Positions 17,435-21,674 of a stretch of DNA of 64,000 bases are shown here, in pieces. The stretch spans positions 2,816,001 through 2,880,000 of the forward strand of contig CAWIAD010000001.1 of NCBI GenBank assembly GCA_963833985.1, given 5' to 3'. The DNA is from an uncultured Planctomycetaceae bacterium. GTDB taxonomy: Bacteria; Planctomycetota; Planctomycetia; Isosphaerales; Isosphaeraceae. The translations under genes and the position numbers were made by a program. The notes under the pieces were generated by a model. It made no database searches. It was given only the letters and a program-made list of their open reading frames with translations, and had not been told where the DNA came from. Every line of letters begins with the position of its first letter. Positions within the stretch are counted from its first letter, which is position 1.

Positions 17435-17549
17435 GTGTGAGGAAAGCTTCTAATCTTGCTTCTTCATTCGTGTAAAACCTATATTCTTGCCTCTTCATTT
17501 GTAGTAATAAAATTTATTCTTGTCTCTTCTTTCGTGGGACAAGATTCCA
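17435..17549 (+). repeat. Degenerate ~33-bp tandem REP-like array; the last unit is split by the intron and continues at 21559-21575
   Basis: Four units each start gt and contain tcttgYYtcttc. The rejoined last unit is gtgggacaagattcca|ttcttgtctcttc (GACAAGA/TCTTGTC stem). Confidence 0.7.
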
Positions 17550-18080
17550 GTGCGCCGTGGAAAGGTGTTGGTCTTCAGTGGGTGTAACTCCCACCCGGCA
17601 ACTGGGTCGCTCCAGCCGGTAGCTATCGGAGCGGCGGTGGAGGAGACGAAACCGTCGGAGCCTTCGAGACAGATGTGTCGCTTGGCGATGCAGCGAACCG
17701 ACAGGCCGTAACGCGAGTGAACGTTGAGCAGGCCTCGAAAAGTCCAATGTGGTCGCCGACCTTGCTGGAATATGGGGAAGGCCGCCGTCGCTGGGGATGA
17801 AAGGGAAACGGTTGGAATAGGCCGCCCCACGAGCGATCAGAACCCAGCGGGCCACCGGGGTATTGACGACGGCATGTCGGCACACGGAGATCAACACAAC
17901 ACGGGAAACCCCAAGCGGTGAGGGCGCGTGACCCTCAACCGGACGCCCGCGAGGGACCGGCCGGGCTGCCTGGGGTGGCGGAGAGGCCTGTAGTACCGTC
18001 GACGCCGGGTAACTCCGGTCGAGGGAAGGGGCCTTGGTTCAAGGTCAACGCAACAAGCGGCAGACAGCCGGGAGATTGGC

Positions 18081-18779
18081 GTGAGTCTATCACCTCCACT
18101 GAAGGTCGGGAAGTTGCAGACGGCGTTGCACACCAAAGCGAAGAACGCGCCCAACTATCGGTTCTACGTCCTGTACGACAAGATTTATCGACGTGACGTT
18201 CTGGGATTCGCCTACGAACGCTGCCGTGCCAACGGCGGCGCGCCGGGGATCGACGGCCAGAGTTTCGCCGACATCGAGGCGTCCGGGAAGGAACGATGGC
18301 TGGACGAACTGGCGGAACAACTTCGTAAGGAGACGTATCAACCCCAGGCGGTGCGGCGCGTGTACATCCCCAAAGGGGACGGCAAGCAAAGGCCGCTGGG
18401 CATTCCTTGCATCAAGGATCGTGTGGTGCAGATGGCTGCGGTGCTGGTCTTGGAGCCGATCTTCGAGGCCGACCTGGAGCCGGAACAACACGCCTACCGC
18501 CCGGAGCGCAGCGCCCTGGACGCCGTCCGCGAAGTCGAACGGCTGCTCAAGACGGGGCACACCGAGGTGGTGGACGCGGACTTATCTGGATATTTCGATA
18601 GCATACCCCATTCCGAGTTAATGAAATCGGCGTCACGGCGCATCAGCGACGGTCGCGTCCTGCGGCTGATCAAGATGTGGCTGGAAACACCGGTGGAAGA
18701 AACCGACGGGAAGGGGCAGCGCCATCGAACGACCCGGAATAAAGACCAGGGGATGGGTACACCGCAAGGTGCACCGATC
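18081..18779 (+). CDS. ltrA: Group II intron reverse transcriptase/maturase, N-terminal part (RT0-RT4), interrupted
   Basis: GAPGIDG, VRRVYIPK, RPLGIP..DRVVQ, AYRPERS, VVDADLSGYFDSIPH, GTPQGAPI; the frame then runs into foreign sequence and stops at 18812. Confidence 0.93.
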
Positions 18780-20794
18780 ACGCCCCCAACAATGTTGCAA
18801 AATCGTCCCTGATTCCTGACTCTGTCATTTCCAGATCGCGGCTTCGACCGAAGTACGGGCACGGATGGCAGCCCCGACTCGATCCCGATCCAAGGCAGGC
18901 TGGCGGCCGCGCTCTCGGAGAGGAGGAGTCGACATGATCACGTCCCCACGGAGGCCCACGTTCAGTCCTCCTGTCACCCGCCACTTCGAGTTCACTCGGC
19001 TTCAGGAGCAATTGATCGCGCGTGCATATCAGGTCTTGATCCCGGTCGTTTCGCAGCGCCTGGATCGGCCGCGACCCAGCCGCAACCACGCGACTGTGGT
19101 CCACACTATCCAGTCCAAGGTCGGGGGGGTTTGACAAACCATGATCACGGACAATCTCCGCGTGGCGCTCTACGCCCGGGTTTCGGGGGAGCAGCAGGAG
19201 AAGGAGGACACGATCGCCAGCCAGCTCGAGGCGGTCACTCAGCGGATCGCCACTGATGGCTTGGAATGCGAGCCCGAACTGCACTTCGTGGACGACGGCG
19301 TCAGCGGTTACATCCTGGCCCGACCGGCACTCGAGCGACTTCGGGACCAAGCCGCCGCTGGAGCCATCGACCGCCTCTATATGCTCGATCCGGATCGACT
19401 TTCACGCAAGTATGCCTATCAGGTCTTGATCCTTGAGGAACTTATCCGGTGCGGTGTCGAGGTCGTCTTCTTGCGCAACCCCGTCGGCCGCAGTCCGGAA
19501 GCCGACCTGCTGCTTCAGGTCCAGGGAATGATCGCGGAATACGAGCGCGCCAAGATCATGGAGCGTTGCCGCAGGGGCAAGCAACACGCCGCCCGCCGCG
19601 GTTCGGTCAACGTCCTCAGCGGCGCGCCGTACGGCTACCGTTACATCGGCAAGCACGAGGGAGGTGGCGAGGCGCGTTATCAGGTCCTCGCTGAAGAGTC
19701 CCGGGTCGTGCGGAAGATCTTCGAATGGGTGGGTCAGGAACGGTGCTCGATCGGCGAGGTGTGCCGACGCCTCCGGCGCGACAGTATCCCGACGCGGACC
19801 GGGAAATCGGCCTGGGATCGCGCGACGGTCTGGTTGATCCTCAAGAACCCTGCCTACAAGGGGACCGCGGCCTTCGGCAAGACGCGCTCAGGTGAGTTCA
19901 AACCTCAACGCCTCCGCCCGCAGCGAGGCCGCCCCGAACACTCCCGGCGACCGGTCTCACGGGTTGATACATCCTCGGAAGATCAAATCTTCATTGAAGT
20001 CCCCGGGCTGGTGAGCGAAGACCTCTTCCTGGCTGTCCAGGCCCAGCTTGAAGAGAACCGGCAACGCCGTCGCGACCGGCCCGGCGGTGGCCGATATCTG
20101 CTCCAGGGCCTGGTCGTCTGCAAGCGCTGCGGCTACGGCTGCTACGGCAAGCCGACGAGCCGAGCCGCGTTCGAGGGCAAGGGTAGGGTCCGCTACGCGT
20201 ACTACCGTTGCACGGGCTCTGACGCCTATCGTTTCGGCGGGCAGCGCCTCTGCTGGAACAAGCAGATCCGCACCGATATCCTTGACGCTGCCGTCTGGGA
20301 GGACTTACGAGGTCTCCTGTCCGAGCCGGAGCGGGTCCGGGAGGAGTACGAGCGGCGGCTGCAGGGTGCCCAGGGCGGGCCGAATCAGGAGGTGGAGCAT
20401 CTCGGCAAATTGATAAATAATGTGAAAAAGATGATTTCTCGATTAATCGATGCTTACGGCGACGGGTTGCTCGACAAATCGGAGTTCGAGCCCCGGATCT
20501 CGGCGGCAAGGACGCGCCTCTCGAGATTGGCGGAGGAGCATCGACAACGAATCGGCGAGGCCGCCCAAGAGGCGGAATTGCGACTGGTGATCGGTCAGTT
20601 GGAGGAGTTCGCACGTCGCGTCTCGCAAGGGTTGCAAGAGCCGGACTGGGCCACGCGACGGGAGGTGGTTCGGGCCTTGGTGAAGAAGGTCGAGATCGAC
20701 GAGCAGGAGGTCCGCATCGTGTATCGGGTCAGTCCGTCCCCTTTTGAGAAAGGCCCCCAACAACGTAGTTCGCAACATTGTTGGGGGCGTGATC
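18776..20794 (+). mobile_element. Large-serine-recombinase integrative element inserted in the RT gene (2015 bp plus duplicated GATC core)
   Basis: Left end gatcacgcccccaacaatgttgc (18776-18798) is the exact reverse complement of right end gcaacattgttgggggcgtgatc (20772-20794). Removal restores the RT frame. Confidence 0.92.
18934..19134 (+). CDS. Small 66-aa basic protein, candidate recombination directionality or accessory factor
   Basis: Strong SD (gaggaggag) before ATG 18934; stops 6 nt before the recombinase ATG; function inferred from position only. Confidence 0.65.
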   Translation: MITSPRRPTFSPPVTRHFEFTRLQEQLIARAYQVLIPVVSQRLDRPRPSRNHATVVHTIQSKVGGV

Positions 20795-21015
20795 TCACCA
20801 TTGTTGTCCAACATCTACATGCGACGATTTGTGAAGGGATGGAAGACTGGTGGACACGAGCGGCGTCTGGTCGCGCGAATCGTCAACTATGCGGACGACT
20901 TCGTCATCTGCTGTCGCGGCACGGCCGAAGAGGCCATGACGGTGATGCGGAAGATGATGTCCAGGCTGAAGTTAACGGTGAACGAGACCAAGACGCGGCT
21001 GTGCCACCTGCCTGA
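19141..21015 (+). CDS. Large serine recombinase (resolvase + recombinase + Zn-ribbon + coiled coil); last ~73 codons read through attR into RT DNA
   Basis: LYARVS catalytic motif, DDGVSG, RPALERL, DRLSR, APYGY, ILKNPAYKG, LLQGLVVCKRCG..YYRC..C. Confidence 0.95.
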   Translation: MITDNLRVALYARVSGEQQEKEDTIASQLEAVTQRIATDGLECEPELHFVDDGVSGYILARPALERLRDQAAAGAIDRLYMLDPDRLSRKYAYQVLILEELIRCGVEVVFLRNPVGRSPEADLLLQVQGMIAEYERAKIMERCRRGKQHAARRGSVNVLSGAPYGYRYIGKHEGGGEARYQVLAEESRVVRKIFEWVGQERCSIGEVCRRLRRDSIPTRTGKSAWDRATVWLILKNPAYKGTAAFGKTRSGEFKPQRLRPQRGRPEHSRRPVSRVDTSSEDQIFIEVPGLVSEDLFLAVQAQLEENRQRRRDRPGGGRYLLQGLVVCKRCGYGCYGKPTSRAAFEGKGRVRYAYYRCTGSDAYRFGGQRLCWNKQIRTDILDAAVWEDLRGLLSEPERVREEYERRLQGAQGGPNQEVEHLGKLINNVKKMISRLIDAYGDGLLDKSEFEPRISAARTRLSRLAEEHRQRIGEAAQEAELRLVIGQLEEFARRVSQGLQEPDWATRREVVRALVKKVEIDEQEVRIVYRVSPSPFEKGPQQRSSQHCWGRDLTIVVQHLHATICEGMEDWWTRAASGRANRQLCGRLRHLLSRHGRRGHDGDAEDDVQAEVNGERDQDAAVPPA

Positions 21016-21394
21016 GGAGACGTTCGACTTTCTGGGTTATACCCTCGGCCGGAACTACGACCGACGAACGGGCCGATCCTACATAGGGTCACGCCCATCG
21101 CGGAAGAAGATCATTCGGCTGTGCAGCGAGATCAGTGCGATGACGACGCGCCAGACCACTGGACAGGACGTCGAGATGCAGATTGGTCGGATCAATCGCA
21201 AGTTACGCGGTTGGTCCAACTATTTTCGCATCGGAACGGTGAGCCCAGCCTATCGCCAAGTCAACCACCACGTCCGCTACCGGGTACGTCAGTGGTTGTG
21301 TGCGAAGTTCAAGGTGCCGGGTCAGGGGCTCAGACGCTACCCTGACAGATACCTGCACCAGGAGTTGCATCTTTACCAGCTGCAACGAACCTAG
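20795..21394 (+). CDS. ltrA: Group II intron RT/maturase, C-terminal part (RT4-RT7, X/thumb; no endonuclease domain)
   Basis: SPLLSNIYM, YADDFVI, LTVNETKT, FDFLGY, LRGWSNYF. Confidence 0.93.
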   Translation, partial: SPLLSNIYMRRFVKGWKTGGHERRLVARIVNYADDFVICCRGTAEEAMTVMRKMMSRLKLTVNETKTRLCHLPEETFDFLGYTLGRNYDRRTGRSYIGSRPSRKKIIRLCSEISAMTTRQTTGQDVEMQIGRINRKLRGWSNYFRIGTVSPAYRQVNHHVRYRVRQWLCAKFKVPGQGLRRYPDRYLHQELHLYQLQRT

Positions 21395-21674
21395 CCGCGA
21401 TGGTTTCGTGAGCGAACGTGTGAACTCAACCGATGAGACAAGCCTTGTCCGAAAGCTGGATGCGGGAAAACCGCCCGTCCAGTTTGATGAGCGGGGTGTG
21501 GAAACGAGGCCCAGCCGAGCCATCGACTCGAGCCCACCGCGCCACACCTCGACTCTACTTCTTGTCTCTTCAATGATTATGCGCGCTACCGGCAAACGAC
21601 TACGGGATGCGCAAGGCGAGTGGAGTCATTCCTGTTTATGATTGCCATCCTGCTGGCGACTTGCAGGCCTTGCT

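Follow-up and report, generated by a model that had tools for sequence, protein, structure and literature searches.

The interrupted intron

The window analysed here, a stretch of 64,000 nt from an uncultured Planctomycetaceae bacterium (GCA_963833985.1, contig CAWIAD010000001.1, positions 2,816,001 to 2,880,000 of the forward strand), contains a group II intron whose reverse transcriptase (RT)/maturase gene is interrupted by a second mobile element (Table 1). This element is cargo-free, comprises 2015 bp and carries two ORFs, a small one and a gene for a large serine recombinase. Emptying the site in silico restored the RT to 433 aa. The ends of the element form a 26-nt inverted repeat (96%) and the crossover takes place at a 2-nt core, AT. 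Because attP is palindromic around AT, insertion is possible in both orientations. GATC was considered as crossover core and rejected, since the flanks of an off-target copy read C-AT-C and G-AT-G, with only AT in common. Three imperfect, AT-rich repeats of 29 nt lie just 5' of the intron (17443-17535).

Table 1. Features of the element and of its host intron (window coordinates; strand in the third column).
Feature	Position	Strand	Basis
Host group II intron	17550..21558	+	Rfam RF02003 (17576-17716) and RF00029 (21451-21533); ends by comparing 12 genome copies
Intron RT/maturase gene, 5' part, cut in PQGAPI/SPLL motif	18081..18778	+	RVT_1 positions 1-123; 433 aa at emptied site; two empty genome copies
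Left 2-nt crossover core AT	18777..18778	.	Only AT common with off-target copy; position shared by 63 elements
Left terminal inverted-repeat arm (attP half site), equal to codons 1-8 of circle-only tail	18779..18801	+	26-nt inverted repeat; position weight matrix across relatives
Circle-only 3' end of recombinase gene, 52 codons and TGA	18779..18937	+	Junction protein P0335; conservation; tail residues 14-18 predicted as strand (pLDDT ~66)
Conserved core of circle tail, codons 9-30	18803-18868	+	Ile17, Arg19, Leu22, Pro24, Tyr26, Gly27
Shine-Dalgarno-like AGGAGGAG ahead of small ORF (putative function)	18921..18928	+	Sequence
Small conserved ORF, 66 aa, motif FExxRL..AYxxLxP, candidate directionality factor	18934..19134	+	Profile match in 61/62 elements
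Large serine recombinase, codons 1-551, no stop	19141..20793	+	PF00239, PF07508, PF13408; alignment; fold
Right terminal inverted-repeat arm, within recombinase coding sequence	20769..20791	-	Inverted repeat; position weight matrix
Right 2-nt core AT, positions 2-3 of codon 551	20792..20793	.	Same phase in 62/63 elements
73 borrowed codons, alternative frame of RT	20794..21015	+	Site-specific, not conserved
Intron RT/maturase gene, 3' part	20794..21394	+	RVT_1 positions 126-205 and GIIM

The Resolvase, Recombinase and zinc-ribbon domains of the recombinase all scored above the Pfam cut-off, which places it among the large serine recombinases. Catalytic, recombinase, zinc-ribbon and coiled-coil domains follow one another and are succeeded by a linker; all canonical domains lie within aa 1-535. 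In 42 aligned rows the motif YARVS was nearly invariant and C327, C330, C357 and C371 were invariant. DUF4368 was not among the Pfam matches of the window protein at E 0.1. This domain is not universal in the TnpX/TndX-like clade; it was found in 63% of this multi-targeting group (Durrant et al. 2022, PMC10083194).

A first-pass annotation of this DNA had claimed that the recombinase gene lacks a stop within the element, so that its 3' end differs between the integrated and the circular state. Recomputation bore this out. The integrated ORF (19141-21015) encodes 624 aa and runs for 73 codons past Asp551. When the ends were joined in silico to a circle of 2015 bp, the gene read through the junction into the left end and encoded 603 aa. 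The TGA of the tail (18935-18937) overlaps the ATG of the small ORF (18934-18936) in the window as described, and by arithmetic from the coordinates 2009 of the 2015 bp of the circle are coding.

Relatives and the open frame at the left end

Relatives were collected by fetching 79 loci, representing the best 80 of 548 matches, which together with the window made 80 loci. The 63 loci kept measured 1.9-2.06 kb between two defined ends; the 17 left out were truncated at a contig border or had ends that were weak. Tail counts refer to 62 elements with 55 distinct tails. To allow for kinship, 59 of the 62 were clustered at 60% identity, giving 22 lineages.

None of the 63 elements had a stop before the right end, and this was likewise so in the six left-out loci with a clear right end. 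The right end was crossed in one phase by 62 of the 63, L032 being the shifted exception. The left-end frame was kept open in homologues. The junction frame was open for at least 45 codons in 50 of the 55 distinct tails, a length that the two alternative frames reached in 0 and 6 and that has a chance of 0.30 per frame. Judged by lineage medians, the tail had at least 28 codons in all 22 clusters and at least 45 in 17; L026 had a tail of just 7 codons. No internal start was common to the left-end frames, 42 of 62 elements having none at all in codons 1-17, so the junction is the only common route by which this frame can be translated. An independent left-end ORF was rejected on the same ground.

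The pattern of substitution in codons 9-30 is that of a protein. Pooled pairwise dN/dS was 0.44 in 15 Planctomycete elements and 0.33 in nine elements of the Burkholderia/Pseudomonas group, while the other sense frames gave 1.1-2.2; the N-terminus of the recombinase, taken as a control, gave 0.36 and 0.11. Arg19 was present in 51 of 53 tails and was encoded by all six Arg codons (AGR and CGN). Leu22 (47/53) likewise used all six of its codons (TTR and CTN) and Ile17 (44/53) all three. Codons 31-52 were nearly unconstrained (dN/dS ~0.75 in the Planctomycete set). Codons 1-8 form the att arm and hence are not informative on selection for the peptide. These sequence comparisons show that the circle-only tail is a peptide under protein-level selection.

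The small ORF

A profile built from 37 of the 62 elements matched the small ORF in 61 of these same 62. The family had no match in Pfam, PDB or the Atlas, and no likeness was found between the small ORF and the tail. Recombination directionality factors (RDFs) bind the integrase and switch on excision. They are described as lacking a common fold (PMC11795197). By size and place alone the small ORF is a candidate directionality factor.

The start/stop overlap, which the first-pass annotation had read as a sign of translational coupling, was conserved in part. An (A/G)TGA overlap was present in 34 of the 62 elements but in only 5 of the 22 lineages. Among the remaining elements the stop of the tail lay inside or beyond the small ORF in 14 and upstream of it, or the ORF was shifted, in 13; one had no match. 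In most non-Planctomycete elements it is the stop of the small ORF that overlaps the ATG of the recombinase. The loop is thus compact everywhere, and what is invariant is the tail peptide, not the exact overlap. The acidic end of the tail is explained by the Shine-Dalgarno-like AGGAGGAG of the small ORF, which is encoded there. In L057 (2385-2717), L061 and L062 the tail frame extends for 111-114 codons across the entire small ORF and stops 2 nt before the ATG at the recombinase start.

The proposal that the circle is a selected state fared accordingly: the tail frame is open and selected as protein, whereas the overlap is kept only in some members.

The integrated tail

When integrated, the gene specifies the complete canonical enzyme (aa 1-551), extended by however many codons the flanking DNA happens to supply. 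In the 63 elements the host-added tails had lengths of 0-374 codons and were mutually unrelated. The same was seen in 120 close database homologues (motif found in 108), whose tails of 1 to 373 residues had no common sequence; none of the 120 carried the circle tail. Database entries of this family are thus nearly always the product of an integrated copy, with a junk end in place of the tail, and mining pipelines in which the annotated ORF is cloned would end up assaying the wrong enzyme. By contrast, the codons of the conserved module of ~30 residues are located at the opposite (left) end of the element, and only through the attP junction does the module become part of the enzyme. The annotation had treated the 73 RT-derived codons as a meaningful second state, a claim that did not survive: this tail varies with site and orientation (624, 598 or 573 aa, or broken) and is an accident of the insertion site.

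The junction form in nature

One of 73 longer tail-bearing proteins, P0335 (472 aa), is the junction form. It reads HCWGRDHAPNNVAK straight across, ends as predicted and is 84% identical to aa 130-551. The protein stems from a single JGI contig of 1509 bp, and the DNA behind it may be a circle, a tandem copy or an assembly artefact. At the DNA level no junction was found in a metagenome scan, in viral contigs or in 401 Planctomycetota genomes. A relaxed scan gave five matches, without an in-frame recombinase junction, and there was no 2-kb record among 48 plasmid matches. In contigs of relatives from four runs, the 15 of 20 matches listed included joints of the empty site but none of the circle, from which absence does not follow. 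A search with the tail profile found 378 proteins at E 0.001, the best 150 of which had no recombinase C-terminus upstream; the tail family had no match in Pfam, PDB sequences or the Atlas. In P0181 and P0292 the tail frame continues in frame into a recombinase N-terminus and in P0323 into a zinc ribbon. These three are probably frameshifts or internal deletions.

A structure model of P0335 had a mean pLDDT of 76.9, obtained with a shallow, unpaired alignment of 35 rows. The alignment was chosen from random subsets for its correct register; others lacked tail rows or were misaligned. Up to about residue 405 the model matched the SPbeta, LI, phiC31 and Bxb1 integrases in most rows, and no counterpart of the circle-only module (residues 421-450) was found in the structure searches. 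The linker (401-430) and the end (448-472) were of low confidence, the tail outside the strand having a pLDDT below 55. Residues 434-438 form a predicted strand of modest confidence (pLDDT ~66), and the short turn after it bears Arg19. Because a strand assigned by DSSP requires a partner, it is presumably docked on the enzyme in the model, and the tail may thus add a strand to the enzyme body.

Copies in the source genome and choice of target

Eleven nearly identical complete copies of the element are present in the source genome (G000). Seven of them interrupt an RT gene in sense orientation (624 aa) and two in antisense (598 aa); one is off-target (573 aa) and another is off-target and frameshifted. 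At least four insertion events lie behind these copies, so the element was recently active. Two intron copies are empty. A twelfth element copy starts at a contig end (G000 C2:1-1263), and ten of the 12 intron copies are thus occupied. The two cores of the off-target copy at G000 C2:5865419-5867434 differ (AT, TT), and its reading frame is shifted near codon 460. At G000 C2:4627300-4628500 a deleted intron contains, at the same site, the 3' remnant of a diverged element (76% aa).

In the window and the 11 other G000 copies the host intron nearly always lies within repeated palindromic sequence of the GACACGAT ... ATCGTGTC type and not in a gene. Window position 20809 is C in all seven sense-loaded introns and A in the two antisense-loaded and the two empty ones. 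Two explanations offer themselves: retrohoming of the loaded intron, with the RT supplied in trans, or a bias that this base exerts on the orientation of insertion. Retrohoming of the loaded intron itself may also spread an element hidden in the RT gene.

The targets could be studied in 59 elements with flanks. The RT motif was hit in 39 of them, 20 times in sense and 19 times in antisense, and the other 20 were located elsewhere. In RT genes the target corresponds to the PQGxxISPLL codons of group II introns. Targets are loose pseudo-palindromes: the left and right cores were equal in 37 of the 59, one base apart in 15 and different at both bases in 7, making 22 mismatched pairs. The flanks of L057, L061, L062 and L032 translate, to judge by the peptides, like IS256 and IS3 transposase genes, and sub-clades such as these may parasitise other mobile genes. 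In L007, L012, L052, L055, L006, L010 and L011 both flanks resembled half-sites, or the halves were unmatched, a pattern that would follow if two copies had recombined with each other and the DNA in between had been inverted or shuffled. Taken as a whole, the family parasitises group II introns widely, occurring in Planctomycetota, Chloroflexota, Pseudomonadota and Acidobacteriota. One of the carriers, Singulisphaera acidiphila DSM 18658 (L004), is in culture. A relative at 52% (L085) is located on the Pseudomonas putida plasmid pWW53 (NC_008275.1, 78913-80510), where the gene table gives a short recombinase piece only.

A possible role of the tail

The element would move through a circle, by excision and insertion of the large-serine-recombinase type, with attP inside its own gene. 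Since integrated copies make the tail-less enzyme only, excision must be the work of this form, unless full-length enzyme comes from a circle present elsewhere in the cell. If the tail-less form excises, the tail would be needed for a step specific to the circle. We suggest the following sequence of events. The tail-less enzyme, with the small ORF product as directionality factor, would excise the element; the circle would then yield the tailed enzyme, whose extra strand would dock on the enzyme body; and the docked tail would tip the balance from excision towards attP x attB integration or target capture. A module for direction control would in this way be added and removed by recombination itself. 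That the tail serves to control direction or to license integration is in our judgement the likeliest reading, with an even chance of being right. Serine recombinases that are naturally bidirectional, namely TnpX and TndX, are described (PMC5311408), so a direction switch is not strictly needed. The more general idea of the first-pass annotation, that the tail affects directionality or stability, is plausible by analogy with Mx8 (see below).

One alternative is that the open frame arose by chance in GC-rich DNA, or that a DNA or RNA site is conserved instead of a peptide. For the window by itself this would be reasonable, as a 52-codon open frame has a chance of 0.47 there, and for this reason the open frame exceeds chance only across relatives. 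The mirror antisense frame also had comparable dN/dS values (0.45 and 0.51), and the first eight codons are att arm. Across codons 9-45, however, the sense frame was open in 58 of 62 elements, as against 35, 12 and 31 for the antisense frames, and even the AT-rich members L034, L054, L055 and L067 keep it. The use of AGR next to CGN for Arg, and of TTR next to CTN for Leu, contradicts both versions of this reading, which we regard as practically refuted. It is also very improbable, if not quite to the same degree, that the frame is kept open merely to deliver ribosomes to the small ORF, the residues being immaterial. The 34 overlaps and the near lack of constraint beyond codon 30 would suit such coupling, but in codons 9-30 it is the residues that are conserved and the codon choice that is free, the overlap is confined to five lineages, and the small ORF has a Shine-Dalgarno-like site of its own. 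A symmetric swap, in which the 73-codon RT-derived tail is a tuned second state, can hardly be sustained. The 624-aa form is common to seven of the 11 copies in the source genome, but these seven share an intron allele missing from the empty and the antisense copies and may stem from one insertion; moreover, identical elements yield 598 and 573 aa, and the tails of the 120 close homologues share no sequence.

The two remaining alternatives accept a selected peptide and differ in what it does. Whichever way the reaction runs, the enzyme might require the tail in order to fold, remain stable or form a synapse; integrated copies would then make a weak enzyme and rarely excise, while the enzyme made from the circle would be strong and reinsert. 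The same conservation data fit this activity switch, a strand that joins an existing sheet could stabilise the domain in the modelled structure, and the integrated form of the Mx8 integrase is described as less active (PMC4701971). On the other hand, the integrated form has every domain needed by the solved integrases, added tails of 0-374 codons are tolerated without a common signal, and 11 near-identical copies from at least four insertions mean that tail-less enzymes must excise. We consider this explanation doubtful, while giving it some weight. The tail could also help the circle-made enzyme to find or bind its target, be this the DNA of the RT gene or a protein of the host or the intron, with no role in direction. 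A function in insertion alone would suit a circle-only module, the tail is Arg-rich, and the targets are loose, with mismatched cores in 22 of 59. Yet the tail motif also occurs in L057, L061, L062 and L032, with their presumed transposase targets, so the RT site is not specified by the tail; a target-finding role is unlikely.

Within the direction-control reading a further step may be tentatively taken, although we would sooner doubt than accept it. The tail could act as an intramolecular anti-RDF, docking at the site where the small protein would contact the zinc-ribbon domain. The circle enzyme would then be locked to integrate, and integration would cut the lock off the gene. If this is true, a two-gene loop of 2 kb is a complete, self-rewriting direction switch. 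The choice of direction by serine integrases is a central question for their use as genome-engineering enzymes, and the family offers a minimal test case with a short, separable peptide present in one state.

Comparison with known systems

A description of the intron-targeting 2-kb family or of its tail was not found in the literature searched, including the text and supplements of Durrant et al. (PMC10083194), whose supplement tables may name targets only by code. The principle of an att site within the recombinase gene is not new, being known from Mx8, SSV1 and the rumA ICEs.

In domain order and fold the enzyme resembles the SPbeta, phiC31, Bxb1 and LI integrases, which work with a separate RDF; they differ in that our searches found no counterpart of the circle-only module in them. 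TnpX (Tn4451/3) and TndX (Tn5397) recombine at a 2-nt core through a circular intermediate, but their elements carry cargo and mobilisation genes and contain the recombinase gene whole. In Tn4451 a promoter is formed at the circle junction. Our scan for junction promoters of the sigma-70-like type found the best common position in 5 of 62 junctions and none in the region of the window. State-dependent promoters of integrase genes are described (PMC13023037). As in our element, a lone large serine recombinase mobilises Tn4451/3 and Tn5397 (PMC5311408). For integrases with a separate RDF, the RDF is reported to bind the zinc-ribbon domain and to steer the coiled coil (PMC11722253).

Phages with integration-dependent immunity have attP in the repressor gene, and recombination rewrites the C-terminus of the repressor, which involves an ssrA-like tag (PMC5559632). 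There it is the repressor that is affected and the integrase is of the tyrosine type, while the tail of our element is conserved in its first 30 residues and not at its end. The archaeal integrases of the SSV1 type are encoded by an int gene that is broken at an internal att site on integration (PMC5861418). These also belong to the tyrosine family, and the split breaks the enzyme, whereas our element keeps the canonical domains on one side.

The Myxococcus phage Mx8 (and Mx9) has its att site within the integrase gene, and in Mx8 integration swaps a C-terminus of 112 residues for one of 13, altering activity (PMC4701971, PMC6070905). Mx8 is a phage with a tyrosine recombinase, fixed attB sites and a fixed new tail; the element has a serine recombinase, is a cargo-free 2 kb, inserts in both orientations and acquires arbitrary tails. 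It works like the Mx8 switch and is not a member of the Mx8 system.

The closest precedent for the swap itself is provided by the serine integrases of streptococcal rumA ICEs, in which attR lies in the integrase gene and the excised form has another C-terminus and another length (Ambroset et al. 2016, PMC4701971). These authors anticipated that the two integrase forms would differ in function (PMC4701971), and they are not known to have tested the excised tail for selection. The rumA ICEs are conjugative, use one target gene and reciprocally exchange 3' ends with rumA (PMC4701971). Our element, in contrast, has no conjugation module in its two ORFs and 2015 bp, and its relatives hit the RT motif in 39 of 59 targets.
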